The notes under the pieces were generated by a model. That model searched no databases, was not told the origin of the DNA, and saw only the letters and a list, made by a program, of their open reading frames with translations. 25,496 nucleotides of DNA from a candidate division WOR-3 bacterium (GTDB lineage: Bacteria > Hydrothermota > Hydrothermia > B15-G9 > WFZT01), in NCBI GenBank assembly GCA_026986235.1, contig JALSOY010000241.1, forward strand, positions 1-25,496, in the 5' to 3' direction. Shown here piece after piece: positions 2,279-25,325 of this stretch. Positions within the stretch are counted from its first letter, which is position 1. Each line of letters begins with the position of its first letter. The translations under genes were made by a program, and so were the position numbers.

Positions 2279-4363
2279 ATGAGTGGTGGCACTAAACCGC
2301 ATAATGAATATGAACTCAGTAAGATCAGAAATATCGGTTTTGCCGCTCACATCGATGCGGGCAAAACCACAACCACGGAGCGTATTCTTTATTACACGAA
2401 GAAGGTTCACCGCATAGGTGAGGTTGACGAAGGGAGTGCCACCACTGACTGGATGGTTCAGGAAAAGGAGAGGGGGATCACTATTGTCAGTGCCGCTACC
2501 ACAGTTTACTGGAAAGGTTACAGAATCAACATAATCGATACCCCGGGACATGTTGATTTTACCGCTGAAGTGGAAAGATCCCTGAGAGTGCTTGACGGAC
2601 TTATCGTTATTTTTGACGGCGTTGCAGGAGTGGAACCACAATCAGAAACCGTATGGCATCAGGCTGATAGGTACAGGGTCAGGAGAATCGCATACATCAA
2701 CAAGCTCGACAGGCTGGGCGCAGATCCTGATAGAGTCGTCAAAATGATCCAGGATAGATTCAAGGTTAACACACTCCTCCTCGAGCTCCCTGTGGGTATA
2801 GAAAGTTCTTTTACCGGTGTCATAGACCTCGTAGAACTCAAAAAATACACATGGAGCGACGAGGTTGATCCCACAGGTGAAAAGTACGGGATCGAGGAAG
2901 TGGAGCTCTCTGGAGATCTGGCTGAAGCCTATGAAGAGCTGGTTTACCAGCTATCTGACATAGATGAGGGAATTCTCGATGAATTTGAAGAAAAGAGAAG
3001 GGTGAACCCGGATAGACTCCGGAGGGCAATAAGAGTCGGAACCCTTGAGCAGAAGTTTGTCCCGGTTTTGATGGGCTCATCACTGAAAAATAAGGGAATA
3101 CAGCCCCTGATTGACGCTATCGTTTACTACCTGCCATCTCCACTGGATATGCCTCCTGTTACGGGAACAAATCCCGTAACAGGTGAGAAGCTGGAAAGAC
3201 ACCCTGACCCTGATGAACCCTTTACAGCTGTTGTTTTCAAAATTCAGCTTGATAAGCATGCCAATAAGTTGTTTTTGACCAGGGTTTACTCTGGAACCCT
3301 GAGGGTTAACAAAAAGGTTCTGGTCAATAACAGCGGGGAGATCGGGAGAGTCACGAGAATTTACCTGATGCATGCCAACAAGAAGGAGCCAGTAAACTAT
3401 GCGAGGGCAGGAGAGATAGTGGCGCTCGTGGGGCTGAAAACTGCCAAGACAGGAGATACTCTTTCCGATCCGGATCACCCCATTCTTCTTGAGGGCATGA
3501 GTTTTCCTGAGCCTGTTATCTCCCTTTCAATTGAACCGAGATCTGCACGAGACGAAGAGAAACTCGAGTTAACTTTACAGGAGATGTCCATTGAAGATCC
3601 CACTTTCAGGATTGAGAGGGACAGGGAAACGGGTCAGCTTTTAATTTCAGGAATGGGAGAACTTCACCTCGACATTATCGTTGACCGCCTAAAGAGGGAG
3701 TTTGGACTTGAGGTGAGAACTGGAAAACCTCAGGTTGCCTACAGAGAGACCATAACACAGCCTGTGCGGATTGAAAGAAGCATTGATAAGGAAATCGGCG
3801 GCGTGAGACACAGGGGGAGTGTTGAAATCGAGATATCGCCCAGAAAGATGGGTGAAGGTAATAAGGTTGAGATTCTTGCTGAGGGTATCCCTGGTGAGAT
3901 TCAGGAGGTTTTAAGGTCGGCCATAGAAGAGGCACTTTACTACGGTCCTTTAATGGGCTACAAAGTTGTGGATGTTTGCATTAAAATATTAAAGGTATTA
4001 ATAGGTGAGGAATATACTCCCCTGGGAACCAGGCTTGCGGTCCTGCGGGCTATGCAGGACGGATTGAGAGAGGGTAAGCCTATTTTACTTGAGCCTGTTG
4101 TTGATCTGGAGATAATCCTTCCCCAGGACTTCGTGGGGAATGTTGTCGCAGATCTTGGTGCCAGGGGTGGAGAGCTTGTTAAGATAGAGGCTCTGGGCGA
4201 TGTTTTGCAGAAGGTAGTTGCAAAAGTCGCCCTGAGGAAGATTTTTGGCTATTCAACCACTCTCAGGTCTCTGACACAGGGGCGTGGGAACTTCTGGATG
4301 AAGCTTTCCCACTTTGCGCCTGTGCCAGAGGAGGAGCTGGAAAAAATTTTAGTATTACAATAA
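2279..4363 (+). CDS. fusA: Elongation factor G-family GTPase, divergent domain IV (spdEFG2/mtEFG2-like)
   Basis: [42 protein letters not shown]. It sits in the str-operon position. Domain IV loops are degenerate. Confidence 0.95.
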
Positions 4364-4381
4364 GGAACGGAGGTGTAAGAT

Positions 4382-5578
4382 ATGTCTAAGCCAAAATTTG
4401 AAAGGAAGAAGCCACACATAAATGTTGGTACAATCGGTCATGTTGACCATGGTAAGTCCACTCTGACGAGTGCTATAACCAAGTACCTGTCCTTCAAGGG
4501 ACTTGCGGAGTACATTCCCTTTGACGCCATCGACAAGGCACCTGAAGAGAAGGCCCGTGGAATCACCATCAACCTCGCTCACATAGAGTACGAGACAGAG
4601 AAAAGACACTACGCACACATAGACTGCCCCGGTCACGCTGACTATATTAAGAATATGATTACAGGTGCAGCACAGATGGACGGTGCCATCCTCGTTGTTG
4701 CTGCAACTGACGGACCCATGCCCCAGACGAGGGAGCACATCCTCCTCGCGAGACAGGTTAATGTGCCTTACATCGTGGTTTTCATGAATAAGGTTGACAT
4801 GGTTGACGATCCCGAGATTCTCGATCTCGTTGAGCTCGAGATCAGAGATCTTCTGAATCAGTATGAGTTTCCCGGTGACGAAGTGCCCATCATCAGAGGT
4901 TCTGCCCTTAAAGCCCTTGAATGCGAAAGCGAGGATTGTGAGTGGAACAAGGCTATCAAAGAGCTCCTCGACGCCATGGACGAATACATTCCTGAGCCCA
5001 AGAGGGAGATCGACAAGCCATTCCTCATGGCAATCGAGGATATCTTCTCAATTACAGGTCGTGGTACAGTGGTCACAGGCAGGGTGGAGCGTGGAATTCT
5101 CAAGCCTGGAGAGGAAGTGGAAATCGTCGGATTCAGAGACAAACCTCTCAAGACCGTGGTTACATCCATTGAGATGTTCAGAAAGATCCTTGATGAAGCA
5201 AGGGCAGGTGACAATGTGGGTCTCCTCCTCAGAGGAATAAAGAAAGACGATGTGGAAAGAGGGATGGTTGTAGCGAAGCCCGGTTCAATCACACCTCACA
5301 AGAAGTTCAAGGCTCAGGTCTATGTCTTGAAGAAAGAGGAGGGTGGTAGGCACACTCCATTCTTTACAGGTTACAGACCTCAGTTTTACTTCAGAACGAC
5401 GGATGTGACAGGAACCATAAAACTTCCGGAGGGTCGTGAAATGGTGATGCCTGGTGATCATGTGAACCTTGAAGTTGAGCTCATCGAGCCGGTTGCTCTC
5501 GAGGAAGGACTGAGATTCGCCGTTAGAGAAGGTGGAAGAACGGTGGGTGCTGGTGTAGTAACCGAGATAATCGAGTAA
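4382..5578 (+). CDS. tuf: Elongation factor Tu
   Basis: [50 protein letters not shown]. Confidence 0.99.
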
Positions 5579-5579
5579 A

Positions 5580-5891
5580 ATGATCGAAGGAAAGATCAGG
5601 ATCAAACTAAAGTCATTTGATCCGGCCCTGATAGACAGGTCGGCAAAGAGGATAACGCTGACTGCCAAGAGAACGGGGGCTGAGGTGTCTGGTCCCATCC
5701 CTCTTCCCACGAAGAGGACGCTATTTTCAGTTATCAGGTCACCTCATGTCCACAAGCGTTCTCAGGAGCAGTTTGAGCTAAAAATACACAAGAGACTTAT
5801 AGAGATCAGGAAGCCGACACAGGAAACTATTGACAAACTATCCAGACTGGACCTGCCAGCTGGAGTAGATGTTGAGATAAAGGTGGTATAA
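5580..5891 (+). CDS. rpsJ: 30S ribosomal protein S10
   Basis: [38 protein letters not shown]. Confidence 0.99.
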
Positions 5892-5893
5892 AA

Positions 5894-6595
5894 ATGAACG
5901 GAATAATTGGTAGAAAGCTGGGAATGACCCAGATCCCTACCGAAGACGGCTCAATAACGGCTGTTACCGTTATTGAAGCCGGCCCCTGTTATGTCCTTCA
6001 GGGGAAGACCGTTGAGAAGGACGGTTACAACGCAGTCAAAGTGGCTTTTGGAGAGGTTCCCAAGAAGAGGCTTTCAAAGCCTCTTCTTGGTGAACTTGTT
6101 AAAGCCCTGGGTAAAGATAGAGAGACTTACCCCGCTAAAAAAATCACTGAATTCAAGGTGGAAAATCCATCCAAGTTCAAACCAGGGCAGGAGATAAAAG
6201 TCACCGATGTCTTTGAAGAAAACGAGTTTGTGGATGTAACAGGGACATCAAAAGGTAAGGGATTCCAGGGTGTTATGAAAAGATGGGGCTTCCACGGAGG
6301 CCCCAAGACACATGGATCCAAGTTCCACAGAGCTCCAGGTTCCATAGGACAGACCACTGACCCGGGAAGAGTGTGGAAAGGTAAAAAGATGGCCGGTCAC
6401 ATGGGTAACAGACGCGTGACAGTCCAGAATCTCCAGATAGTTAAGATTTATCCTGATAGAAACATAATCCTCGTTAAAGGCGCTGTTCCAGGTGCTAACG
6501 GTAGTATTGTGGTAATCAGGAAAGCGAAGAGGCCCAAACCCAACAGGCCTGTCGTTTACGCCCTTGGTTCCAAAAAAGAGGAGAGTAAAGAATGA
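5894..6595 (+). CDS. rplC: 50S ribosomal protein L3
   Basis: GRKLGMTQ, SKGKGFQGVMKRWGF, HRAPGSIG, KMAGHMG, KGAVPG. Confidence 0.99.
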   Translation: MNGIIGRKLGMTQIPTEDGSITAVTVIEAGPCYVLQGKTVEKDGYNAVKVAFGEVPKKRLSKPLLGELVKALGKDRETYPAKKITEFKVENPSKFKPGQEIKVTDVFEENEFVDVTGTSKGKGFQGVMKRWGFHGGPKTHGSKFHRAPGSIGQTTDPGRVWKGKKMAGHMGNRRVTVQNLQIVKIYPDRNIILVKGAVPGANGSIVVIRKAKRPKPNRPVVYALGSKKEESKE

Positions 6596-7218
6596 AGGCG
6601 CCACTTTTTAATTCCAGCGGCGAGAAGGTAGACATGATCGAACTCCCCAGAGAGGTAGTGGGTGAGAAAAAACCTAAAAAAGCTGTACTCTGGGAAGTGG
6701 CCCGCATGTACCAGGCAAACAGGAGAAGAGGAACCCACAAGACGAAGTCCAGAGGTGAGCTCGCTTATTCCACAGCCAAACTCTTCCCTCAGAAAGGCCT
6801 TGGCAGGGCACGCCATGGATCCAGATCTGCAAACATATTCGTTGGTGGATACAAGGCCTTCGGCCCGAAACCCCGTGACTACAGCTACAGCGTTCCAAAA
6901 AAGGTCAAAAGACTCGCCCTCAAAATGGTACTCCACGACAGAGCAATGGCTAATAGAATCTACCTCGTTGAAAGTATAGACTTCGAGACCCCGAAAACGA
7001 AGAACATGGTGGCTCTTGTTAATAAACTCGGTCTGGAAGGTAAAAAGGTGATCTTTGTACTCGGTGATTATAAGAAAAATGTCTATCTCTCCGGCAGAAA
7101 CATTCCAAAAGTTGATGTGAAACTTGCAAAAGACATAAACGCCTTGGATGTGTTGAACCATGACTATGTGGTAATGGAACAGGATGGCCTTAAGAAGCTT
7201 GAGGAGAGGTTGACATGA
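6592..7218 (+). CDS. rplD: 50S ribosomal protein L4
   Basis: RRGTHKTKSR, QKGLGRARHG, FGPKPRDY. ATGA overlap with rplC. Confidence 0.98.
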   Translation: MKAPLFNSSGEKVDMIELPREVVGEKKPKKAVLWEVARMYQANRRRGTHKTKSRGELAYSTAKLFPQKGLGRARHGSRSANIFVGGYKAFGPKPRDYSYSVPKKVKRLALKMVLHDRAMANRIYLVESIDFETPKTKNMVALVNKLGLEGKKVIFVLGDYKKNVYLSGRNIPKVDVKLAKDINALDVLNHDYVVMEQDGLKKLEERLT

Positions 7219-7508
7219 AGGACCCGAGAGATATTATTATACGCCCTATTCTAACGGAAAAAATGACCTTTCTGAGGGAAAAACTCGGAAATTACTACGC
7301 CTTTGAGGTCGCAAAGGATGCCAACAAACCTCAGATAAAGAAGGCTGTCGAAGAACTCTTCAGGGTTAAGGTGGAGGATGTGAAGATCGTGAATGTGAAA
7401 CCCAAACCGAGGAGATTGAGAAGGGCACCGGGTTATACGCGCTCGTACAAGAAGGCCTATGTCAAACTAAAGAAAGGTGAAAGAATAGAAGGATTGGAAG
7501 GAGTGTGA
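7215..7508 (+). CDS. rplW: 50S ribosomal protein L23
   Basis: [29 protein letters not shown]. Confidence 0.98.
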
Positions 7509-7515
7509 TTTAAAA

Positions 7516-8355
7516 ATGGGAATTAAAAAATACAAACCATATACCCCGTCAAGGCGATTCATGACAACAGTGGATTACAGCGAGTTGACAAAAAAGGAGC
7601 CGGAGAAGTCACTCACAATCGCCATTCCGAAAACAGGTGGAAGAAACAACCTGGGGCGTATCACCGTAAGATTTAGAGGTGGCGGAAATAAGAGGAAGTA
7701 CAGAATTATTGATTTCAGAAGAGAAAAGTTTGGAATCCCTGCAAAGGTTAAGTCCATAGAATACGATCCATTCAGGACAGCATGGATTGCTCTCCTGCAG
7801 TATGTTGATGGTGAAAAGAGGTACATTATAGCGCCTGACGGATTAAAAGTCGGAGATACAGTGGTTTCCGGTCCCGGATCGGAGCTCAAGGTTGGCAATG
7901 CCCTTCCACTTTCGGAGATTCCCGAGGGCTGGGAGATACACAATATTGAGCTCGTTCCAGGGAAAGGAGGTCAGCTCGTGAGGTCAGCTGGAACAGCAGC
8001 AGTCATTCTATCAAAGGAAGGCAAGTATGCCCATGTCCAGCTGCCCTCAGGTGAAGTGAGACTTATTAATCAGAAGTGCCTTGCCACGATAGGTAGAGTT
8101 TCTAATGTTGATCACGAGAATGTGGACATAGGTAAGGCCGGTAGAAAGAGATGGATGGGAAGACGCCCACATGTGAGAGGAATTGTTATGAACCCGGTAG
8201 ATCACCCACTCGGCGGTGGTGAGGGAAGATCAAAGAGTGGTCGTCCACCCAGCAGTCCGTGGGGCCTCGTTGACGGTAAGAAAACCAGGAAAAAGAGGAA
8301 ACCTTCTGACAGATTCATCGTTAAAAGACGCACTGCCAGGAAGCGGAGGAAATAA
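7516..8355 (+). CDS. rplB: 50S ribosomal protein L2
   Basis: [37 protein letters not shown]. Confidence 0.99.
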
Positions 8356-8357
8356 TT

Positions 8358-8645
8358 ATGGGTAGATCCGTTAAAAAAGGACCCTATGTGGATCCCAAAC
8401 TTCTCAAGAAGATTCAGGAACTTAACGAGAAGGGCGAGAAAAAGGTAATAAAAACCTGGTCGAGACGCTCTACCATACTGCCCGAATTCGTAGGACACAC
8501 AATTGCAGTTCACAACGGAAGAAAGTTTATACCGGTTTACATCCATCAGGACATGGTGGGACACAAGCTTGGTGAGTTTGCCCCTACGAGAACCTACAGA
8601 GGACACAAGGACATGAAAAAAGCTCAGAAAGGGAAGGTGAGGTGA
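8358..8645 (+). CDS. rpsS: 30S ribosomal protein S19
   Basis: [27 protein letters not shown]. Confidence 0.99.
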
Positions 8646-8649
8646 AACC

Positions 8650-8979
8650 ATGGTGGGTAGAGCTATTCTGAAATATCAGAGGATTTCACCCAAGAAGGTA
8701 AAACCGGTCATGGATCTCGTTAGAGGAAAATCAGTACCCCAGGCTGAAGCTGTTCTTGCATTTTCCAGAAAGAAAGCGGCGAGGTTTATTGAAAAGGCCC
8801 TCAAGGCGGCTGTTGCATCCTATACCGAGAAACACCCTGTGGATAAGAATAGCCTCAGAATCGTGGTGGCAAAGGTTGATAAAGGACCGACGATGAGAAG
8901 AATTAGACCTGCCTGGCGTGGCAGGGCTGTGTTAATCAGGCACAGGACATCCCACATAACCATTCAGGTTTCTGAATAG
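8650..8979 (+). CDS. rplV: 50S ribosomal protein L22
   Basis: RISPKK, VDKGP, GRA...RTSHIT, plus gene order. Confidence 0.97.
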
Positions 8980-8987
8980 GAGGAACT

Positions 8988-9650
8988 ATGGGTCAGAAAG
9001 TTCATCCGATTGGATTTAGATTGGGAGTTACCAAAGACTGGAAGGCTCACTGGTTTGCCGAAGGGAAAGATCTTGAGGCAAACCTTCAGGAAGATCTTAA
9101 GATAAGACAGTACCTGAAAACGAGATTGAAGGATGCTCAGGTTGCAAATATCGTTATAGATAGGGCTGCAGAAAAGCTGAGTATCAACATCTACACCTCA
9201 AGACCCGGTGTGGTCATCGGGAGAAGGGGCTCTGAAGTTGAGGTATTAAGAAGGGAGCTCATGGAGCTTACCGGTAAGAGGGATATAAACATTAATGTCC
9301 ACGAGGTGCGGATACCAGAAATTGAGGCTGAACTGGTTGCCCAGTCCATAGCCCAGAAGATAGAGCAGCGTGTCTCTCACAGGAGAGCCATGAAAAGAGC
9401 GGTGGACATGGCGATGAGAATGGGAGCCAGGGGTATAAAGGTTCAGACCAAAGGAAGACTCGGAGGTGCCGAAATCGCCAGGAAAGAGTGGTACAGAAAG
9501 GGCCGTGTTCCCCTTCAGACCCTTCGTGCAGACATTGACTATGCCGAGGCAACTGCTTTCACAAAATACGGTACGATAGGCGTTAAAGTATGGATATACA
9601 AAGGTGAAATCCTGCCCAGGAAAGGTGGAGAAGAGGAGGAGGTGTATTAG
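8988..9650 (+). CDS. rpsC: 30S ribosomal protein S3
   Basis: [47 protein letters not shown]. Confidence 0.99.
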
Positions 9651-9652
9651 TT

Positions 9653-10072
9653 ATGTTGATGCCAAAGAGGACAAAGTACAGAAAGCAGCACAGGGGAAGG
9701 ATGAAAGGAAAGGCGATGTCTGGTAATTACATCGCTTTTGGTGAATACGGATTAAAGGCGCTGGAGGCGCACTGGATCACAGGTAACCAGATAGAAGCCG
9801 CCCGTCTCGCCATTACGAGATACCTTAAAAAGGGCGGTAAACTCTGGATCAGAATTTTCCCGGACAAGCCTGTGACCAAGAAACCTGCCGAGACTCGAAT
9901 GGGTAAAGGAAAGGGTAATGTTGACCACTGGGTTGCCGTAGTTAAACCCGGAAGGATACTTTTTGAACTTGCAGGCGTGACGGAAGAGCAAGCAAGAGAA
10001 GCCTTCAGAAAGGCATCCTTCAAACTGCCCATTAAGACCCGTTTCGTGTCTCTTAAGGAAGGAGGAATGTAA
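9653..10072 (+). CDS. rplP: 50S ribosomal protein L16
   Basis: [29 protein letters not shown]. Confidence 0.99.
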
Positions 10073-10278
10073 TGAAGGCGAAAGAACTCAGAGAGCTGAC
10101 AGACGAAGAACTCCGCCAGAAGCTGAGCGATCTCAAAGAAGAACTTTTCCAGCTCAGGTTCCAGCACGCACAGAAGGCCGAGGTGAAGTCCCACATGTTC
10201 AAAATGATCAAAAAGGACATCGCGAGGATACTCACCATTTTAAGAGAAAGAGAGCTTCAGGGGAGTGAGACGAAATGA
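10072..10278 (+). CDS. rpmC: 50S ribosomal protein L29
   Basis: [26 protein letters not shown]. Confidence 0.97.
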
Positions 10279-10571
10279 AAGAGAGGCGCGGTTTCAGAAA
10301 GGAAAGGGTTGGCAGGGTCGTTTCAGATAAGATGAACAAGACCCGCGTTGTGGTCGTTGAGAGGATAGTTAAGCACCCTCTTTACAAAAAGTACATCAAG
10401 GTCAGAAAGAAATACTATGTACACGATGAGCACAACGAATCCAGAGAGGGTGATATTGTGAGGATAATGGAAACAAGACCCCTTTCAAAGACAAAGAGGT
10501 GGAGACTCGTTGAAATATTAAGAAAGGCTGAGCGACCGGAAGATCTGCTGAACAAGGAGGAGGAAAAATGA
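10275..10571 (+). CDS. rpsQ: 30S ribosomal protein S17
   Basis: [30 protein letters not shown]. Confidence 0.99.
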
Positions 10572-10936
10572 TCCAGGATTTTACGAGGTTAAAGATAGCA
10601 GATAACACAGGCGCCCAGGAGGCAATGGTTATCAAGGTCCTTGGAGGCTCCAGAAGGAAATACGCCTATGTTGGCGATGTCGTTGTTGTAACTATCAAAG
10701 AGGCAGTTCCAGGGTCGCCTGTAAAGAAGGGTGATGTTCTTAAAGCCGTAATAGTCAGAACGAAGAAGGAGATGAGAAGACCGGATGGAACATACATTAA
10801 ATTCGACGATAACGCCGCCGTTCTCATTGACCAGTACAACGATCCCAAAGGAACCCGCGTGTTCGGTCCCGTTGCAAGGGAACTCAGAGACAGGAAGTTT
10901 ATGAAAATCGTCTCACTTGCTCCGGAGGTGGTCTAA
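10568..10936 (+). CDS. rplN: 50S ribosomal protein L14
   Basis: [28 protein letters not shown]. Confidence 0.99.
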
Positions 10937-11263
10937 ATGGCTGCGAAGATAAAAAAAGGTGACACAGTCCTGGTTGTTAAAGGCGACCACAACCGAACCC
11001 GGGGCAAAATCGGTAAAGTTATCAAGGTTTTCCCGGAAACCAACAGGATTATCGTCGAAGATGTTAACAAAGTGAAGAAGCACCAGAGGAGAACTTCACC
11101 AGAACAGCCCCATGGAATCATAGAGATGGAGGCACCTATTCATGTTTCCAATGTCAGACTCATCTGTCCAAACTGCGGGAATCCTACCCGTGTGGGCTTT
11201 AAATTTCTCGAAGACGGTAGAAAGGTGAGATACTGCAAAAAATGCGGTGAGGTGATCGAGTGA
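10937..11263 (+). CDS. rplX: 50S ribosomal protein L24 (Zn-ribbon type)
   Basis: [20 protein letters not shown]...CKKC. Confidence 0.98.
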
Positions 11264-16478: not shown

Positions 16479-17221
16479 TCATCATAAAGACGGATGAGGA
16501 AATAGAAGGAATTAGGAAAGCCTCCCGGATCGTTGCAGAGGTTCTTCAATTTGCACGGGAAATTGTAGTTCCTGGTATTACCACCAGAGAAGTTGACGAG
16601 AAGATCCGTGAGTTTATAGAGAGCAAGGGAGGGCGTCCTGCCTTCCTGGGTTACAGAGGATTTCCTGCCTCAAGTTGTATCTCTCTCAACGACGAAGTGG
16701 TACATGGAATCCCGGGAAGTAGAAGGATAAAGGAAGGTGATCTCGTTAAAGTTGATGTGGGAGTCGTTTACAACGGCTACATAGGGGATGCAGCAATTAC
16801 GATCGTAGTAGGTGAGGTCTCGCCCTCGGTGAAAAAGCTTGTTGAAACCACGGAAAAGGCTCTTTACCGTGGAATTGAAAAGGCCGTTCCGGGGAACCGC
16901 CTTTCCGATATATCACACGCTATCCAGAAAACTGCGGAAGAAGCTGGATTTTCCGTGGTGAGAGACCTTGGAGGTCATGGTGTGGGTTTGAAACTTCACG
17001 AGGAGCCTTTTGTTCCAAATTATGGTCCTCCGGGTAGGGGACCTCTATTGAAAAGGGGGATGACCCTGGCACTTGAACCTATGGTCAACATGGGTCGTCC
17101 TCATGTTAAGACGAAAAAGGATGGATGGACTGTTGTTACAAAGGACGGGTCTCTTTCTGCCCACTTTGAGCATACCATAGCGATACTTGACAATGGTCCG
17201 GAAATCCTTACAAAAATATAA
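16475..17221 (+). CDS. map: Methionine aminopeptidase type I
   Basis: SLNDEVVHGIP, DVG, GDAA, GHGVG..LHEEP, EPM, AHFEHT. Confidence 0.99.
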   Translation: MIIIKTDEEIEGIRKASRIVAEVLQFAREIVVPGITTREVDEKIREFIESKGGRPAFLGYRGFPASSCISLNDEVVHGIPGSRRIKEGDLVKVDVGVVYNGYIGDAAITIVVGEVSPSVKKLVETTEKALYRGIEKAVPGNRLSDISHAIQKTAEEAGFSVVRDLGGHGVGLKLHEEPFVPNYGPPGRGPLLKRGMTLALEPMVNMGRPHVKTKKDGWTVVTKDGSLSAHFEHTIAILDNGPEILTKI

Positions 17222-17235
17222 ACTGAAGGAAAGCC

Positions 17236-17457
17236 ATGGCGAAGAAAAAGAATGTAATAAGGGTTGAAGGAACGGTAAAAGAGGTTTTGCCCAACGCGAT
17301 GTTTCGCGTTGAGCTGGAGAACGGGCATGTGATACTTGCGCATGTTTCTGGTAAGATGAGGATGCACTTTATTAGAATACTCCCGGGAGACAGGGTTACA
17401 GTGGAGCTTTCCCCCTACGACCTGACGAGAGGAAGGATAGTTTACAGGTATAAGTGA
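17236..17457 (+). CDS. infA: Translation initiation factor IF-1
   Basis: [40 protein letters not shown]. Confidence 0.99.
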
Positions 17458-17463
17458 GCGGGG

Positions 17464-19821
17464 TTAAGGAATTATTTTTATATCTAGTACATGGTCAGTG
17501 ATATCTATTATATCGTAGATAATGTTTCTTATTTTATCACAATTATGTTGTCCATATAGCGTCAGTTTTAAATCACTTTTCCCGAGATAAATTTTTGTTT
17601 TGCCGAATTTATTGAGGTAACTTTTTACTCTTTTAATGTCCCAGTAGGAGTTTGCTCCTTTTGAGAATCTTATAAGTATTTCTGGGGATTCTATTGATAT
17701 TTTGTCTGACACACTATTGCCAATAAAGATTCCAGATTCACTGTAAACCACAGGGTTTTTTAAAGTGACGCCGCAATTCATTTGTGAATATATGTTATAA
17801 AGAAGCCGGGATAGACATTCATAGTTTATCTGTTTTTTGGGTTCCAGCAAAATCAATAAATCAAAGGAGTACCAATCCAAAGAACCGAGAATAATGTAAT
17901 TTACATTTTTAATAACTCCATAGTATTTTTGTTTTATTTTATTCTCTATTCTTTTCAAGTTTTCTTGAAACGAAGATAATTGACATTTTTGTTCAAAAGA
18001 GAGTTTAGAAAATATCAGAATTTTATTAGATATAAATTCATCAAAATTAGCAGAATCTAAATCAAAATCTTTAGCTAAAATTACAAAAAAGTTCTCCCAT
18101 GAAAAGTTTTTCAGCATATAATTTTCATTGATATCATACAAAAAGTTCTTTAAAGCATTAGAGTTGTTTGATAAATAACTAATGTTAAGGTCATATAAAT
18201 TTGTATATAAATGCTTAATATTGATATTGATAAAATCTTCACAATTGATAACAAAATTGGTAAGATGATCTTTTAAATTACCAGGATACATTTTTCCTTT
18301 TTTATCAAATCTATGCTTATATGTTAAAACCTTTAGGATTTCTACTGATTTTATCTGAGATCCATTTCCTTTATAATCGGCTCTTGAGAGATAATATATT
18401 AACAGGGAATTTTCTAAAATATTAAGTAGTTCATATTCAAATAGGATATCTTGTTTGTTACCGCTATTCTCCATTTTTAGAAGATTATTTGAAATCTTAT
18501 GATAAGTATCTAAAAAATTTTTGTAGGCAAAGAAGTTTTGACATTTTGCGTGATCGTTTTCTTTGCAATAATTTCCAAAATCTGTAAACGGTTTAATAAT
18601 CTTATAAAAGTTTTTATCATTCAGGACAGAAATCCAGCTGCTAGTAATATATTCATGTATTGTATCCATGAGTTGATAAAAGATTCTTCCTTTAGTCCCA
18701 AGGAAAAAATTTATATGAATTTCTTTGAATTTTTGAATGATATGTTTAAATAAATCAAGGTATTCCATAGAGCCGTTTTGATCAAGCATGTTAATTACAG
18801 ACGACAATCTCAAATACCAAGATGGGTAATTTGAATCCAAGTCAGATAATTCATAGCTATCCATGTTTTGGTCATACATAAAAAGTTTTACAAATACAGG
18901 TATAAAGTAAAAAATACCGAAGGAAGAAGAAAGTAGGAAGTCAATTAGTATGTCAAGTAATAGAGGGGTAGGATTTAACAATTCATTTAAAGGAAAATTT
19001 GAGTAATTAAAAATTTTGTAAATATTCATAATCATAGTCGATAAGTAGTTATTTAAAACCAAACATTCTGGATTTTCTTTAGCATTTTTTAAACAAGAAC
19101 CGAGAGCTGAGTGTAAAATTTCATGGTAAAAAACCATCCATTGAGAATACTGATATTGTGTAAAAAAATCACTACTTATCTTTAAAATTTTTTCTTGTTT
19201 AGGAGGATTATCAACTCCTATTATTTCTGTTTCAATTTCATTGTTAAAAGCCCAATAGAATATGTAATCTTTCGGTATGGTTTTTAATATGTATGAATCC
19301 TTTCTGACATTTTCTTCAATATATTTCCCAAATTCATCAAGTAGACGATGTATATAAATGTAAGCCATGTGAACTTCCCTAAAGGAAGGTAATTTAGGTT
19401 CAGTAAAATAGGTAGGATAAGCATTTACCAAACTTGTTAATTTCCTTTGTAGAAAATTAAATGTATTAAGGCATCTTCTGATACCTGTTGTTGTTTCAAA
19501 GAAATTCTGAAAGTATAATACCCAAAAGGGCAAGAAGTCATTGGAAATTTTTTGGGAATTTGTCAATTCAGAAGAATACCTCTTAAGGTCATTGATCTTT
19601 TTGTTTATTCGGCTTAGGTTTTTTTCCATATTTTTTAGTGCAGAAGAGTATAAGAGGTTAAATTCTTCCTCAAGTTTAAGGTATTCCTTAGAATCTGTGG
19701 AATCTTCTCTATAAAAATTGGTTAGCTTTCTGACGAAGTTAAATTCGTCGTTAAGTAATTTCCACCGGGAAAAAAGATCATAGTTTAACAAATTAAGGAT
19801 AAATTTTATGTCCTTTTCCAT
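17464..19821 (-). CDS. Hypothetical 785-aa protein: HExxH zinc-metallopeptidase-like domain plus probable C-terminal Lrp/AsnC-like (ferredoxin-fold) modules
   Basis: Long ORF. Start reassigned to ATG 19821 after SD AAGGAGG (MEKDIKF). HEILH at 19111-19125, DILIDFLL..FG.FY, YPSWYLRL. C-terminal G/DxxD-hydrophobic strands. Confidence in the ORF is high; the domain calls are lower. Confidence 0.7.
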   Translation of the reverse strand: MEKDIKFILNLLNYDLFSRWKLLNDEFNFVRKLTNFYREDSTDSKEYLKLEEEFNLLYSSALKNMEKNLSRINKKINDLKRYSSELTNSQKISNDFLPFWVLYFQNFFETTTGIRRCLNTFNFLQRKLTSLVNAYPTYFTEPKLPSFREVHMAYIYIHRLLDEFGKYIEENVRKDSYILKTIPKDYIFYWAFNNEIETEIIGVDNPPKQEKILKISSDFFTQYQYSQWMVFYHEILHSALGSCLKNAKENPECLVLNNYLSTMIMNIYKIFNYSNFPLNELLNPTPLLLDILIDFLLSSSFGIFYFIPVFVKLFMYDQNMDSYELSDLDSNYPSWYLRLSSVINMLDQNGSMEYLDLFKHIIQKFKEIHINFFLGTKGRIFYQLMDTIHEYITSSWISVLNDKNFYKIIKPFTDFGNYCKENDHAKCQNFFAYKNFLDTYHKISNNLLKMENSGNKQDILFEYELLNILENSLLIYYLSRADYKGNGSQIKSVEILKVLTYKHRFDKKGKMYPGNLKDHLTNFVINCEDFININIKHLYTNLYDLNISYLSNNSNALKNFLYDINENYMLKNFSWENFFVILAKDFDLDSANFDEFISNKILIFSKLSFEQKCQLSSFQENLKRIENKIKQKYYGVIKNVNYIILGSLDWYSFDLLILLEPKKQINYECLSRLLYNIYSQMNCGVTLKNPVVYSESGIFIGNSVSDKISIESPEILIRFSKGANSYWDIKRVKSYLNKFGKTKIYLGKSDLKLTLYGQHNCDKIRNIIYDIIDITDHVLDIKIIP

Positions 19822-19834
19822 AAATTCCTCCTTT

Positions 19835-20614
19835 TTAAATAGGGAGTAATCTTTTAATACCAATCCAAATTTCAGGTTTTATCCCGTTTTCTAAGACATA
19901 CCTCAGTATATCTCTATAGGAATAAACAAAACTTTTTTGCTGTTGTTGACCCAATGAGTCCAATAATTCTGTTACCATTGAACGGTAAGTTGAGAAGTAT
20001 CTATTAATAATGTAAAGTTTTGTACTTGAGATCATTATGACAATCAATACATAAAACAAGAATTCGAAATTTTTTATCCCGATAATAGTTAAAATAATTG
20101 TAAGGAATACTTCTGGAAACCAGAGAATACTCACAGGATGATTGTTTAGGAAAATCGATAAAACGATAAGTTCCCCAAGTTTAGATAATATGTGTAAATT
20201 TCCAAGTAAAAATTCCCCTGTTCTATTGGTTGGATAACGAAAGATTTCAAAGGATTTTGTGCGTTCTAATCCAAAATTCAGAGGCAGGATAAATTTTGGG
20301 TTGAATTTAACAATCAAAAAATCTTTGTATTTATCTGAAGAGATGGTTATTTTAGGATATAAGACATACAGATAAATGAAATAAATTAAAACAAATATTA
20401 GTGACAATACCTTAAATAAAGCATCATTAGATACAACAAATACAGAGTAAGAAGCAGATAAAATCACAAAAGTGTTATGTTTATTAAGATCAGTTATAAT
20501 TTCGTATAAAGAAATCATATCTGATTTTTTATAAAATCTTCTAAGCGTAAAATACAAAGAAATTGAGAACAAAATAATCAATCCTATTGATAAAACAACC
20601 CTCTCCATCCCCAT
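19835..20614 (-). CDS. Hypothetical integral membrane protein (~5-6 TM)
   Basis: 259 aa with hydrophobic segments (VVLSIGLIILFSISLYFTL, ALFKVLSLIFVLIYFIYLYVLY, VFLTIILTIIGI, FLFYVLIVIMISS). Its stop abuts the SD of the next gene. Confidence 0.75.
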   Translation of the reverse strand: MGMERVVLSIGLIILFSISLYFTLRRFYKKSDMISLYEIITDLNKHNTFVILSASYSVFVVSNDALFKVLSLIFVLIYFIYLYVLYPKITISSDKYKDFLIVKFNPKFILPLNFGLERTKSFEIFRYPTNRTGEFLLGNLHILSKLGELIVLSIFLNNHPVSILWFPEVFLTIILTIIGIKNFEFLFYVLIVIMISSTKLYIINRYFSTYRSMVTELLDSLGQQQQKSFVYSYRDILRYVLENGIKPEIWIGIKRLLPI

Positions 20615-20657
20615 TTTTAAAGCCCTAATGTCACCTTGTCTAAGCTATCTGCTTAGA

Positions 20658-20918
20658 TTAGAATAATGGTTTTTTACCCCATTTTTTCCTTGTTGAGTTA
20701 AAACCTTCTCCAGTTCTTACATAGCCTCCTTTTATATAGTCGCTCTTATTTCCTTCAGTTATATTCGTTTGCACTATCAAAGAGAATATCTTTTCATATG
20801 CTTGAGACTGTAGGGTTTGAAGCCTTAATTGATGCTCAACAGTACCTAATCTTTTATCTAAGTCTAATATTTTTTCTTTGATTTCTTCAAACATTTCGAG
20901 AATGTCTTTATTTTCCAT
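20658..20918 (-). CDS. Small hypothetical protein with N-terminal coiled coil
   Basis: 86 aa. SD AGGAG 7 nt before ATG. Heptad-like ILEMFEEIKEKILDLDKRLGTVEHQL and a basic C-terminus. Confidence 0.7.
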   Translation of the reverse strand: MENKDILEMFEEIKEKILDLDKRLGTVEHQLRLQTLQSQAYEKIFSLIVQTNITEGNKSDYIKGGYVRTGEGFNSTRKKWGKKPLF

Positions 20919-20941
20919 GGTTTAACTCCTGTCTTGAATAA

Positions 20942-20981
20942 AATTTGGACAGGGGAACCATGTTGGTTCCCCTGCCATTTT
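20942..20981. terminator. Hairpin, likely intrinsic terminator of the TAXI gene (or REP-like palindrome)
   Basis: Perfect 11-bp stem CAGGGGAACCA-TGT-TGGTTCCCCTG (20950-20974), extendable imperfectly, with T-rich tracts on both strands. Confidence 0.65.
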
Positions 20982-21020
20982 GTCTTACATCACCTCAACT
21001 TTTTGATTCGCACAACAAGA

Positions 21021-21974
21021 TTACTTAAGTATCCCCTTCTCTTTGTAGAACTTCTCTGCGCCTGGATGAAGAGGAATGGACATTCCTTCAAGTGCCGTCT
21101 CAAGGGTTATGGATTTCGCCCTGGCGTGAGCCTTGTGGAGCAGATCCAGATGGTCAAAGAGGACCGAGAGGAACTTATAGACATCTCCCTCTGGAAGACC
21201 CTTCCTGGCAACCAGGAGAGCCTTCACTGCCACTGTCGGCACAGGCTCGTCAACACCCTTGTAAACTCCAGGCTTGATCTCATCCTTGGCATAGAATGGA
21301 TACTTCTTCTTCAACATCTTGTAGTGGGCATCATCGATGGGAACGATGGAAATGGGTGTGATGATGGAAACATCCATGATGGCCGCCGCACCCTGACCAA
21401 CTGTAAAGAATGCTGCATCAATCCTTCCGTCCTTAAGGAAGTCTGCAGCTTCAGAGGCCTTGAGTCTCTCGGCCTTGATGTCATCAAAGCTGAGACCGTA
21501 AACGCCCAGGATCTGGCGGGCATTTGCCTCGGTCCCACTACCAAGTGGACCAACAGCCACTTTCTTTCCTTTTAGATCTGCAGGTGATTTGATACCTGCA
21601 TCCTTTCTTGCAACAATGTGCACTGTTTCTTTATGAAGGGCCAGAACACCCCTCATGTTTTTCGCCGGCTTCTCCTTCTTAAATACCTCTGTGCCTGTAT
21701 AGGCGTAGTAGGCGATATCGTTCTGAAGGATCGCCATGTCAACTTCCTTATCCCTTATGAGTCTTGCATTGGCAACTGACGCACCTGAGGATTCAACCGT
21801 GAGTTTGAAATCAGGTGCGTACAAATACATTATTCTGGACATAGCCCCTGCAAGGGGATAATACACGCCTGTCACCCATCCTGCACCAAGGGTGATGAAC
21901 TTCTTCTTAGCCTGGACCTGTCCAACACCCAGGATGGTGACCAGTATCACTGCAATGTGCAATACCTTCCTCAT
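21021..21974 (-). CDS. TAXI-family TRAP transporter solute-binding protein
   Basis: Start reassigned to ATG 21974 after SD AAGGAGGT. Signal peptide MRKVLHIAVILVTILGVGQVQA. Motifs G.YYPLAG, ESSGASVAN, LQNDIAYYA, ETVHIV, GPLGSGT, GRIDAAF, PLHPGAEKFYKE. Confidence 0.93.
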   Translation of the reverse strand: MRKVLHIAVILVTILGVGQVQAKKKFITLGAGWVTGVYYPLAGAMSRIMYLYAPDFKLTVESSGASVANARLIRDKEVDMAILQNDIAYYAYTGTEVFKKEKPAKNMRGVLALHKETVHIVARKDAGIKSPADLKGKKVAVGPLGSGTEANARQILGVYGLSFDDIKAERLKASEAADFLKDGRIDAAFFTVGQGAAAIMDVSIITPISIVPIDDAHYKMLKKKYPFYAKDEIKPGVYKGVDEPVPTVAVKALLVARKGLPEGDVYKFLSVLFDHLDLLHKAHARAKSITLETALEGMSIPLHPGAEKFYKEKGILK

Positions 21975-22014
21975 TGTTCTACCTCCTTTTTGATCTCTAC
22001 ATTTAAAATCAAGC

Positions 22015-22023
22015 ATTGTAGCA
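22015..22023 (-). promoter_or_regulatory. Candidate extended -10 promoter for the TAXI gene
   Basis: Minus strand reads TG-C-TACAAT about 40 nt upstream of the ATG. A TTGACA lies only 8 nt upstream of the hexamer, so it is not a matched -35. Confidence 0.45.
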
Positions 22024-22080
22024 CAAACTGTCAATACCCGAACCTTTCTCTTTACAGCTCTTCAACCCGAATTCGATCGC

Positions 22081-23301
22081 TCAGGGCAGATTAATTCCTA
22101 AATCCAACCCTGCCTTTAAGCCTCTGGTTGAATTGAAAATCCCCCTGTAAAAGGCAAATCCCGCATCTATACTGACCTTCAAGAGTCTTAGACCCACTCC
22201 CGTCGTGTAATAGTTACCTCTGTTCGTGAAAGCCATTCCAAATCTCACAGGCAAAAAGGGTATGTACCTCATTTCTGTGGCAAGTCCCAGTTTCCTCTCA
22301 CTGTAAATTTGTCCTGAACGATAGACAAAATCACCAAATACCCTGATTTTATCGCCGAACATGCGGCTCCCCAAACCCATTCTGAACTCCAGTGGAAGTT
22401 TTGAATAGAACGGCTCTGCTGGCTCAGTCCAGATTGTATCCTTGATAATCGTGTCCGGGTTGTCTATCAGTTCACCGATGGTGAAAGAATCAGAATGAAC
22501 CGTGAAGATCACCACGGAGTCCGATTCTGTCCACTTTACCTTCGCACCAATGTTCAGAATACTAATGCCAAAACTCCACCTGTCAGTTTCAAGGCCAAAT
22601 CCTATGTCAAACCCCACACCTGATCCACCCATAGAGGTGATTAAGCTCCCACTTCCATCTATGTAAATATAGTTTGTATCCGTACTTAAAGTAATATCGA
22701 GGTTTTCCAGTCTGGCATAGGCTATACCTCTAATTGCCTTGATACCCGCACCGAGGGAGAGCCTTTTTACCGGTCCGAACAGGTGAATACCAAAACTTTT
22801 ACTAAAAGCAAAATCGAGAGTAATATAGGCGGTTCCATAATTGTTGAGTTTTGTAAAGTGATAAACAGAACCGAGCTGGTTTCCATTCAATACAAGATCG
22901 AAGAGTTTCCCATAGAGGTTGGCGTCCAGATCTGCGAATCCCTCAAGGGAGATGGCGAATCCTGATGTTTTAAAGCCAAAAATGGACACCTCTCCCCTCC
23001 CTGCGGCTTTCAGTTTCGGTCCAATGCGACCCAGCAAATACCGTTTGTCTCCAGAGTCAAGGAGTTTACCTTCCTGGAAGTAATTGTTTATGTCGTTAAC
23101 GGAAAAGGCGCTGTTTCCAGCAAACAATCCGGCGTAGAGAATGTTGAAACAGGTTCCACGGGCTCTTGAAAATGAGAGCATTGCGGGATTGTAATAACCT
23201 GACTGAGGACCGGCGTCTTCGCCTGTAAGGGCTCCTGCAAGTCCAATTCCCCTTGCATTGTATCCGAAAAAGGCAATCGCTGCAAGGATTAAATTCAACA
23301 T
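22081..23301 (-). CDS. Outer-membrane beta-barrel protein, FadL/PorV/DUF5723-like
   Basis: N-terminal ARGIGLAGA...YYNPAML plug motif of the FadL-like superfamily, alternating amphipathic beta-strands (GFDIGFGL, FRMGLG, VRFGMAF, YYTTGVGL), and C-terminal strand LDLGINLP. Confidence 0.8.
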   Translation of the reverse strand: MLNLILAAIAFFGYNARGIGLAGALTGEDAGPQSGYYNPAMLSFSRARGTCFNILYAGLFAGNSAFSVNDINNYFQEGKLLDSGDKRYLLGRIGPKLKAAGRGEVSIFGFKTSGFAISLEGFADLDANLYGKLFDLVLNGNQLGSVYHFTKLNNYGTAYITLDFAFSKSFGIHLFGPVKRLSLGAGIKAIRGIAYARLENLDITLSTDTNYIYIDGSGSLITSMGGSGVGFDIGFGLETDRWSFGISILNIGAKVKWTESDSVVIFTVHSDSFTIGELIDNPDTIIKDTIWTEPAEPFYSKLPLEFRMGLGSRMFGDKIRVFGDFVYRSGQIYSERKLGLATEMRYIPFLPVRFGMAFTNRGNYYTTGVGLRLLKVSIDAGFAFYRGIFNSTRGLKAGLDLGINLP

Positions 23302-23308
23302 GACCTCA

Positions 23309-25243
23309 CTACTCTCCCATCCTTACCGTTATTTCTCCAAAAACATCTATTTTTATGTAGTCGGAAATTCTGACTGATATCGTGTCCGTTCCAGGTATGT
23401 AAATCTCCATCCATGAAGTTTGCTGATCCGCTCCGAAGATCAAAGCTTCGTCGTGGGTAAGACTGAAAACCAGCGTCGTATCCTTTTCCCCCGTTGCAAA
23501 TCCTGCCTCGTCGTGAGGTGCCGCTGGAATGGTAAAGTTTCTCATAAGTGTATCCCCTGCATCAGAGTACATGGTTAATCTGGCACCGAACCCTAAAGGA
23601 ATTCTGTTTCTTAATCTTATGTAAAGACTACCTCGGTTAAATCTATCAAGTATATCCTGGTCAACCTGGATGGAGTCAACGGATGTGTCTGAAACCATGG
23701 TATCCGGTCGGAAAATTACTCTGAATGGCGCATTCAATGTAAATGACCCGGTGATAAAGTCGTCCCTGTAGATTGATCCCCTTCCATCAATTACGGCATC
23801 ACCATCGATGATCACTCGCTGTGGAACTACGCTGAAGATACGCGAAAGGTCGAGGTTAATAGGTGTTACCACCGGGTTGTTGTGCCTGCCGGGATTCAAC
23901 TGTATTTCGAAGGTATCCGTTACAGTATCTTCAGCTCCTATATTTGTTATATACAGTTTAATCAAAGGCGCCAGATTCATCGTCTGACTGAGTTCCCCGG
24001 TGAGGTAAACCCTTGCAAGGCGGAAATTCAGTGTGTCAGGCAGATCGAGGGTGGTATCAATTTCCGGAATTTCTCGGTAAACAGAATCAAATGTGCCGGC
24101 CGCATACCTCAAGGCCACATCTTCTATTGATACATAAACATCGACTGAATCGTATCCCCGGATTTCCAACCACTGGGAATCTATAGTAGAGTTGACAGCA
24201 AAAGAAATTCCCGAGTCTCCAATTATTAGTTTCCTTCCCGCAAGGTTCATGTACATCGTCGTGGTTGAATCCGGTAAGATTCTCAAGGTGGTATCAAAAG
24301 GCATCCCGTTCGTGATCAGATTTTCACTTGACACCTCGATGGATTCATAGATGTCAAGTGGATTGTACAGGCTTATAGACAGTATCCCGGAGTCAAGTAC
24401 GACGGTATCTATGGACCCTTCCTCGAAATTCATGGTCACTCCGAATGTATCCGCTATGGAAAATCCTGGGAAATATGCCCGAGCACTGTCAACCACGATG
24501 GAATCCACAGAGACCCTTATGAAAAAGTTGTTCCTGGAGGAGACATATACACTGTCCCCTCCCGGTACCCCCATGTACTCAACGAGCCTTAAGGTGTTAG
24601 TCGTGTAAACATTAGACACCTCCAGCGTCGTGTCTATGTGTTCATAGGGAGAGATACTATCAATCTCTCCGTGGAAAATCAGGGTGGAATCACCGAAATC
24701 TCCAATACTGTAGATCCAGACGCTGTATGGAGAAATGGTAATCGGAAAGTTATTCTCAAATTGAATCCGGACAGAAGCGTAAGAGATGCTTGCCCAGTCG
24801 AGTTTTGTAAGCGTGTCCGTTGTATCGGTAACCGTGTCAGGTAAAATGGTGGGAAGAAGTATCCTGACAGAGTCGTTAACATGGTTGTTTATCGTATCCA
24901 GTATCGAATCAGGTAATGGAAAATCCTGCCAGCTTATCGTGATTCCCCGGGTAGTGAGATCTCTTACCACGAGTTTACCAAAACCCACCCTTACAGTGGT
25001 GTCCCTGTTCTCAATCCTGATGCTCTCAGCAGGGTAGATGGTATCTATGTCAGATGAGACAAAGAATGTCAGAAGGGAATCAGGCCCTACAATTATGTGA
25101 GTGGTGTCGTCCAGGAGGTCTTCTATTTTTACAGTGTCGTGAAGGATGGGGAATTGATATGTGGAGTACCAGTCTGGAACTCCGGGCTTTTTTATGCACG
25201 ATGTGAAAAGAACAACAACGCCAATTAAAAACAGCCTTTTCAT
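23309..25243 (-). CDS. Large (644 aa) beta-rich outer-membrane lipoprotein, D-S/T-rich
   Basis: Start at ATG 25243 gives MKRLFLIGVVVLFTS-C (lipobox, Cys16). P.W......P motif after the Cys. Acidic and beta-branched rich. 7 nt upstream of the barrel gene. Confidence 0.85.
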   Translation of the reverse strand: MKRLFLIGVVVLFTSCIKKPGVPDWYSTYQFPILHDTVKIEDLLDDTTHIIVGPDSLLTFFVSSDIDTIYPAESIRIENRDTTVRVGFGKLVVRDLTTRGITISWQDFPLPDSILDTINNHVNDSVRILLPTILPDTVTDTTDTLTKLDWASISYASVRIQFENNFPITISPYSVWIYSIGDFGDSTLIFHGEIDSISPYEHIDTTLEVSNVYTTNTLRLVEYMGVPGGDSVYVSSRNNFFIRVSVDSIVVDSARAYFPGFSIADTFGVTMNFEEGSIDTVVLDSGILSISLYNPLDIYESIEVSSENLITNGMPFDTTLRILPDSTTTMYMNLAGRKLIIGDSGISFAVNSTIDSQWLEIRGYDSVDVYVSIEDVALRYAAGTFDSVYREIPEIDTTLDLPDTLNFRLARVYLTGELSQTMNLAPLIKLYITNIGAEDTVTDTFEIQLNPGRHNNPVVTPINLDLSRIFSVVPQRVIIDGDAVIDGRGSIYRDDFITGSFTLNAPFRVIFRPDTMVSDTSVDSIQVDQDILDRFNRGSLYIRLRNRIPLGFGARLTMYSDAGDTLMRNFTIPAAPHDEAGFATGEKDTTLVFSLTHDEALIFGADQQTSWMEIYIPGTDTISVRISDYIKIDVFGEITVRMGE

Positions 25244-25325
25244 GATGTTACAATTATAAAAACTCACCACCCATAATTACAAGCAGTATATGCAGACTGT
25301 TCGGAAAAAGTGAGGGGCGAAATTA

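Follow-up and report, generated by a model that had tools for sequence, protein, structure and literature searches.

A horizontally acquired three-gene cassette with a putative zincin-like protein behind infA of a candidate division WOR-3 bacterium

The subject of this analysis is a cassette of three genes in a stretch of 25,496 nucleotides from a candidate division WOR-3 bacterium (GenBank contig JALSOY010000241.1). This stretch, hereafter the window, is a whole 25.5-kb contig (C241) of genome G000, a metagenome-assembled genome (MAG) of 1.85 Mb in 273 contigs which is 85% complete. The plus strand of the window carries the str/S10/spc run of ribosomal genes, the last genes being secY, adk, map (Peptidase_M24) and infA. 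The cassette occupies positions 17464-20918. Its genes A (20658-20918, 86 aa), B (19835-20614, 259 aa) and C (17464-19821, 785 aa) are all encoded on the minus strand and converge on infA. A and B are separated by 43 nt, B and C by 13 nt. A mechanical list of open reading frames (ORFs) opens gene C at a TTG at 19863, overlapping gene B; the likely start is ATG 19821 because the sequence GGAGG stands 5 nt upstream. This Shine-Dalgarno sequence (19827-19831, minus strand) is matched by an AGGAG, read from the sequence, which lies 7 nt ahead of the ATG of gene A (20926-20930, minus strand); that of gene B is weak. Strong sites of the GGAGG type also precede gene A in four of the related loci introduced below (L016, L017, L018 and L020). 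A preliminary description of this DNA had listed three co-oriented ORFs with just these gaps and clear Shine-Dalgarno sites for two of them. With gene C read from ATG 19821 the coordinates agree.

A horizontally acquired insertion between infA and the TAXI gene

The base composition of the cassette differs profoundly from that of its surroundings. Its GC content is 0.282 compared with 0.462 and 0.478 in the 3-kb flanks. In sliding windows the values are 0.24-0.33 within the cassette and 0.44-0.50 beyond, and at each edge the change is completed inside a single 250-nt step, i.e., the sharp edges and the low GC content noticed earlier are real. At the left junction (17458-17463) 6 nt separate the stop codon of infA (17455-17457) from that of gene C (17464-17466). 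On the other side a GC-rich hairpin with a stem of 13 bp (20948-20976), terminator-like on both strands, lies between the stop of the next gene and gene A, only about 29 nt from the ATG of the latter. The gene beyond the hairpin encodes a TAXI receptor (NMT1_3; 21021-22034). This is a clean cargo insertion of 3.5 kb with almost no spare bases at either end, and the tight fit raises questions of how such a cassette is integrated and how it is expressed.

A direct comparison is afforded by G004, the closest genome of the same genus, the flanks of which share 75-81% DNA identity with the window. There, the distance from the infA stop to the stop of the TAXI gene is about 85 bp as against about 3.56 kb in the window, and the spacer contains only a hairpin, which is different from that of the window. 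Thus, an empty infA-TAXI site, for which the preliminary description had proposed to look, is present in a sister genome. Using a profile of C, G000 stands alone among 6 genomes of the genus and is the only carrier among 272 genomes of the phylum; the cassette is not fixed in the lineage. A second match in the phylum (E 6.7e-4) spanned only 71 coiled-coil residues and was discounted. The drop in GC content, the empty site in G004 and the patchy occurrence together demonstrate that the block is a horizontally acquired insertion into an otherwise empty infA/TAXI spacer, in line with the acquisition proposed earlier.

The site itself has a history. In two other genomes of the genus, G005 and G002, infA is followed by rpsM, rpsK and rpsD. 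In the window genome and in G004 the ribosomal superoperon ends after infA, and the convergent TAXI receptor gene follows. The loci compared are window 17236-17457 and 21021-22034, L002 3000-3400 and L003 2904-4623. The insertion site therefore is a lineage-specific rearrangement breakpoint which G004 has in common. For this reason the placement of the cassette beside tuf, fus and infA is probably incidental.

Is the join genuine? Logan contigs from two runs of two studies (2019, labelled hydrothermal vent metagenome, and 2025) run unbroken through 16900-21500 with 2 and 4 differences; one or both runs may be the source of the MAG, hence they represent at most two independent assemblies. In a third sample, X3, short contigs bridge position 17460 and extend across 20930; the left junction is bridged by X1, X2 and record 4 of X3. 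Contigs of 40 kb and 104 kb are likewise on record as encoding the proteins of the cassette, and neither junction coincides with a joint or a free end in any contig. Since contigs from two studies cross both junctions the insertion is real, and a chimeric join at 17460 or 20930 is not supported. When four runs are compared, the differences within the cassette genes number 6 synonymous and 4 non-synonymous, and the frames are open. The cassette is intact and probably under constraint. In contigs of run X3 two exchanges affect gene C, W190R (19254), at a residue which is invariant in the family, and M152R (19367); a short X3 contig ends in Nextera adaptor letters so that both may be errors.

Co-inheritance of the trio and the families of A and B

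Proteins of the C type are rare. A search of 1.84 billion representatives at E <= 1e-3 gave a family of 22 representative clusters, the members of which measure 730-850 aa with few exceptions. The nearest relative (P0005) is 36-42% identical, the others about 20%. Pattern scans of species-representative genomes gave three loci, in MAGs of a Crocinitomicaceae (L016), an Aquificaceae (L017) and a Hydrogenothermaceae (L018) member; four metagenome contigs carrying C were found in addition. Among 178 genomes of the Aquificota, the phylum of G274, three have C, one of them as a fragment at a contig end. In the order of G272 it is one of 401 sampled genomes.

In all seven loci with readable upstream DNA (L016 through L021 and the window) the order A-B-C is identical: a protein of 86-144 aa, then a membrane protein of 242-294 aa, then C. 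This count covers the loci where DNA upstream of C is present, a subset of the 22 clusters. In L017, L018 and L019 genes B and C share 4 nt, which suggests coupled translation. All three frames are intact in these loci and in the window. The size of the cassette is 3.4-3.65 kb at every locus, and wherever the flanks are measurable it is AT-rich relative to its host. The GC contents of cassette and host are 35% vs 41% in L017, where it sits in a 7-kb low-GC stretch of a contig of about 53% GC, 22% vs 30% in L018 (33-42% further out), and 29% vs 41-43% in L019. The neighbours change from locus to locus, i.e., a porin and small orphan ORFs in L017, an insertion sequence (IS) and rbfA in L018, the end of a purA-like gene in L019 and a BI-1-like membrane protein in L021. 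Only in L018 does an IS adjoin the cassette. As the order is constant while the neighbours vary, the trio moves as a block. Clearly, A, B and C belong together as one unit and have been inherited jointly, in an unchanging order, in at least three phyla.

The Crocinitomicaceae copy of C (L016/L025, G272:C294:58-2453) is split by an in-frame TAA and an in-frame TAG, and its contig has about 3x coverage. Either decay of this copy or a sequencing error accounts for the split.

None of the three proteins matched a model in Pfam, NCBIfam, PHROGs or PADLOC, even at E <= 1. The earlier statement that no gene belongs to a named family thus holds. In A an N-terminal coiled coil, which varies in length between homologues, is followed at the C-terminus by a conserved basic tail with the consensus V-R-E-G-T-G-F-N-x-x-R-x-K-W-x-x-x-P. 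The alignments of 16 homologues contain one invariant Gly (G72), located within this tail motif; in a divergent subgroup the tail reads I-S-D-P-R-G-F-N-S-L-R. Profile matches of A in the PDB were generic coiled coils only, and the protein has no hydrophobic segment. B, an integral membrane protein, has four or more hydrophobic helices; a loop of about 70 aa and the C-terminal tail are soluble. Its alignment displays a W-F-P-E motif, which opens a helix and in which F166 and E168 are invariant, and a G-I-x-P...L-P tail. A PDB profile search with B was without a match and the protein Atlas returned nothing usable.

The three proteins are outside Pfam, NCBIfam, PHROGs and PADLOC, yet they are strictly co-inherited across at least three phyla which share hydrothermal habitats. 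The families are new as a set, but their packaging as a small mobile multi-gene cassette with a protease is of a familiar kind.

Gene C and its likeness to known peptidases

The alignment of 19 C sequences has 15 invariant columns, among them H233, E234, H237, D290, D294, W190, W335, W650, R718, G747, D750 and D780. An AlphaFold2 model was built on this alignment (predicted local distance difference test, pLDDT, 73.9; predicted TM-score, pTM, 0.82). According to the model the protein starts with a three-helix bundle (residues 1-133; 19423-19821, like all coordinates of this section on the minus strand). A linker rich in Pro and Tyr follows (residues 134-150; 19372-19422). Its consensus S-F-P-x-Y-Y-P-x-P-K is conserved, with Y138 and P142 nearly invariant, and it is modelled as disordered (pLDDT < 50 at residues 139-149). 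Three predicted strands, 185-190, 197-204 and 209-217, form a sheet (185-217) which directly precedes the putative active-site helix 230-245 (block pLDDT about 86-87). This helix bears the sequence HEILH (residues 233-237; 19111-19125), an HExxH motif evident in alignment and model and invariant in all 19 members; it is the basis of the label zinc-protease-like in the preliminary description. An invariant DxxxD (residues 290-294; 18940-18954) follows 53 residues after HExxH. D290 and D294 are on one face of the helix 285-301, which in the model is the helix after next from that of HExxH, and further helices extend to about residue 480. D290 is a candidate third metal ligand, with D294 as the candidate supporting Asp.

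The C-terminal part (residues 490-785; 17467-18354) is predicted to consist of three ferredoxin-like beta-alpha-beta-beta-alpha-beta units. Residues 491-703 are packed in the model like the double domains of chlorite dismutase/HemQ, and residues 709-785, which bear the invariant R718, G747, D750 and D780, are ACT/RAM-like. The similarity scores to ACT and Lrp-AsnC RAM domains and to chlorite dismutase/HemQ are middling and denote a likeness of fold only; Pfam gave no match, and no haem-enzyme residues are claimed for C. In the comparison with the ACT and Lrp-AsnC RAM families the sole sequence hit was 2zbc (E 0.042).

Fold and family searches with the entire protein were unproductive. Over the 19 homologues Pfam found no recurring family, and the full model had no match at E <= 0.001 in Foldseek searches of PDB and BFVD. 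In the VIA wide search of the model the list was taken up by generic helical bundles which resemble residues 1-133, and in the Foldseek lists, too, domains other than the putative catalytic one prevailed. A domain-only model of residues 134-484 was built on 4 sequences and was poor (pLDDT 54), which rendered its fold search uninformative. For the same residues the protein Atlas listed U49, M48 and M13 clusters with scores of 0.80-0.92 and TM values of 0.3-0.59, which are leads only. Taking motif and model together, C likely represents a new zincin-like family with a catalytic role. A and C are probably cytoplasmic because A lacks a hydrophobic segment and C lacks an anchor-like helix or a signal-like N-terminus. 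A complex prediction for C with A scored 0.24 with a mark of 0.32, which counts neither for nor against binding.

The gluzincins, e.g., M4 (thermolysin) and M13 (neprilysin), have HExxH and ExxxD motifs; M35 are the aspzincins. C resembles these groups in that one predicted helix bears HExxH and a later one bears a candidate acidic ligand followed, four positions further along, by an Asp. In M13-type gluzincins HExxH and ExxxD are about 50-60 residues apart, like the 53 of C, and one Atlas neighbour of C is automatically named M13 (score 0.88). C differs from gluzincins in that the first acidic residue is an Asp instead of Glu, and no significant match in sequence or fold was found.

Lit (peptidase U49), the cell death peptidase of E. 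coli e14, is a trigger-gated protease which kills by cleaving EF-Tu, and its functional model is borrowed here. An alignment of six Lit sequences (that of e14 plus five plasmid-encoded proteins which carry the annotation phage exclusion protein Lit family) has as invariant residues H160, E161, H164, E181 and D185, i.e., HExxH and ExxxD. Both are HExxH proteins on mobile DNA, Lit being cytoplasmic and C probably so, and both have an acidic residue spaced by three from an Asp on a later helix (E181/D185 in Lit, D290/D294 in C). The differences are considerable. The spacer from HExxH to the acidic residue is 17 residues in Lit vs 53 in C, and the acidic residue is Glu in Lit and Asp in C. Lit is a single-domain protein of about 300 aa whereas the 785 aa of C include a helical bundle and three ferredoxin-like domains. 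Further, Lit stands alone while C has two obligate partner genes.

IrrE/DdrO, ImmA/ImmR and CapP/CapH each combine a COG2856/M78 zincin with a small partner and are often found on mobile elements or in defence operons. As in C, a zincin with a C-terminal sensor-type domain is placed beside a small dedicated partner, which in those switches is the substrate. In contrast, the partner A is a coiled coil without a helix-turn-helix, and the membrane protein is a third obligate member. Pfam searches of C and its aligned family members detected no sequence relation to M78.

A possible conflict module and its alternatives

What is the cassette for? In our estimate the probability is roughly 40% that this horizontally mobile, self-contained three-gene unit is a conflict or defence module of the abortive-infection or addiction type, with C at its centre as a novel cytoplasmic zinc metallopeptidase. 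A conflict module fits better than housekeeping physiology because of the extreme rarity of the cassette, its spread across phyla, its foreign composition and the IS neighbour. A defence role we infer only, by analogy.

A mechanism may be drawn by analogy with Lit and with the IrrE/DdrO, ImmA/ImmR and CapP/CapH pairs. C would stay inactive until a trigger, for instance a small ligand or a protein of foreign origin, is sensed either by the ACT/RAM-like domains at its C-terminus or by the helical bundle at its N-terminus. Once active, it could cut a host protein or its partner A, in the latter case at the conserved basic tail. B would anchor the complex at the membrane and may itself be the downstream membrane effector. 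In its most specific form the proposal is a three-component abortive-infection system of thermophilic and vent microbes: a new ACT/RAM-gated zincin (HExxH...DxxxD), triggered by phage, would cleave the coiled-coil partner or a host factor and so free a membrane protein which collapses the cell, all on a 3.5-kb cassette that crosses phyla without mobility genes of its own. This version we consider rather doubtful. Were a defence or conflict role true, it would mean a new protease-based mechanism as well as a new zincin family. Both would stem from thermophile communities; defence catalogues, drawn mostly from cultured mesophiles, cover these poorly.

Several observations weigh against the conflict module. 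PADLOC-DB 2.0 assigned 0 families to A, B, C, P0008 and nine neighbours in L017 and L018. Two viral-contig scans and the examination of phage genomes and plasmids turned up no relative. The flanks are housekeeping genes in the window, a purA-like gene in L019 and a BI-1-like membrane protein in L021, i.e., no defence-island context is seen. On these three grounds the defence system announced in the preliminary description remains a candidate, albeit a credible one, and the roles assigned there, those of a membrane effector and a small adaptor or antitoxin, are equally tentative. Of the outcomes which that description had named as refuting it, none was encountered. The cassette carries no integrase, and at the island ends there is no convincing target-site duplication and there are no terminal or flanking direct or inverted repeats; nor do the loci have an end sequence or motif in common. 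From the hairpin that terminates the TAXI gene to gene A no sigma-70-like promoter was recognised, the regional count of sites being at shuffle level; the island may be expressed through read-through or from a promoter type outside the coverage of the scan. Last, no significant profile or fold match to a characterised peptidase was found for C in the searches described. Compared with the Lit alignment by hhalign, C as a peptidase U49 reached probabilities of 2.3% and 7.0% over 13-17 columns around HExxH, and with E. coli Lit alone only the HExxH helix was aligned. For peptidase M48, an alignment of 28 proteins taken from related genomes was set against residues 134-420 of C, represented by 19 sequences; the probability was 4.4%, and the 20 columns aligned were again those around HExxH. 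By these comparisons C belongs to neither U49 nor M48. The Pfam models PF10463 (U49) and PF01435 (M48) had no match at E <= 1 in any of the 19 C members; a genome search with PF10463 remained without a match even in control genomes and is uninformative. Literature searches on HExxH, anti-phage and zincin subjects found no paper describing the trio.

The housekeeping surroundings can be accommodated by assigning the cassette to regulatory proteolysis. C would then be a sensor protease like IrrE, ImmA or CapP which cleaves A upon stress and so alters the membrane function of B, e.g., in stress adaptation or in the control of another element. The domain logic fits, as a zincin with a C-terminal domain of the small-molecule sensor type is paired with a small dedicated partner possessing a conserved tail, and the cassette is located among housekeeping genes outside of defence islands. 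Yet A is without a DNA-binding domain, no regulated target genes travel with the cassette, and extreme rarity with transfer across phyla suits a selfish or conflict role better. We regard such a switch as unlikely. A good deal less probable is that A is a precursor, the conserved C-terminal 20 residues of which are released or modified by C, with B as export or immunity protein. A is indeed small, its C-terminus is far more conserved than its N-terminus, and an HExxH enzyme is paired with a membrane protein. However, the N-terminal part of A is a long coiled coil and no typical leader, B has no signature of a transporter family, a radical SAM, YcaO or LanM modifying enzyme is absent from the cassette loci, and NCBIfam gave no HExxH peptide-modification match.

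A toxin-antitoxin-like arrangement would secure nothing except the retention of the cassette, with B or C toxic, A as labile antidote and no benefit against phages. The small size of the cassette, the small promoter-proximal gene A, the tight coupling and the patchy mobile distribution are compatible with this; no known toxin or antitoxin family was matched, however, and 3.5 kb with a multidomain protein of 785 aa is large for such modules. This explanation overlaps with that of a conflict module and is inseparable from it in silico. As a separate case we assign it a low probability, marginally below that of peptide maturation. Finally, a mis-assembled join or a decaying, functionless remnant might be suspected from a MAG in 273 contigs, from the in-frame stops of the Crocinitomicaceae copy and from W190R at an invariant residue in the X3 contig. 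This is highly improbable considering the single contigs from two studies which span 16900-21500, the proteins on the 40-kb and 104-kb contigs, the intact frames in the window, L017, L018 and L019, and the invariance of the catalytic-type residues in the family. The conflict module remains the preferred reading, with part of the remaining probability left to explanations outside those considered here.

A few features of the surroundings are added. Rfam and tRNA scans of the island gave nothing, and the window has no tRNA. No RNA dataset is listed among the sequencing runs which contain the DNA of the cassette. Downstream of the TAXI gene the window encodes a DUF5723/TraF-like protein of the outer-membrane type (22081-23301) and a protein of 653 aa without any Pfam match (23309-25270). 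In L017 the low-GC stretch of about 7 kb (4000-11000) also holds eight small ORFs without Pfam or PADLOC match. In L018 (3997-5992) the cassette lies at a contig end and is followed by a low-GC orphan ORF of 283 aa on the opposite strand and by the IS, which contains HTH_28 and rve domains.

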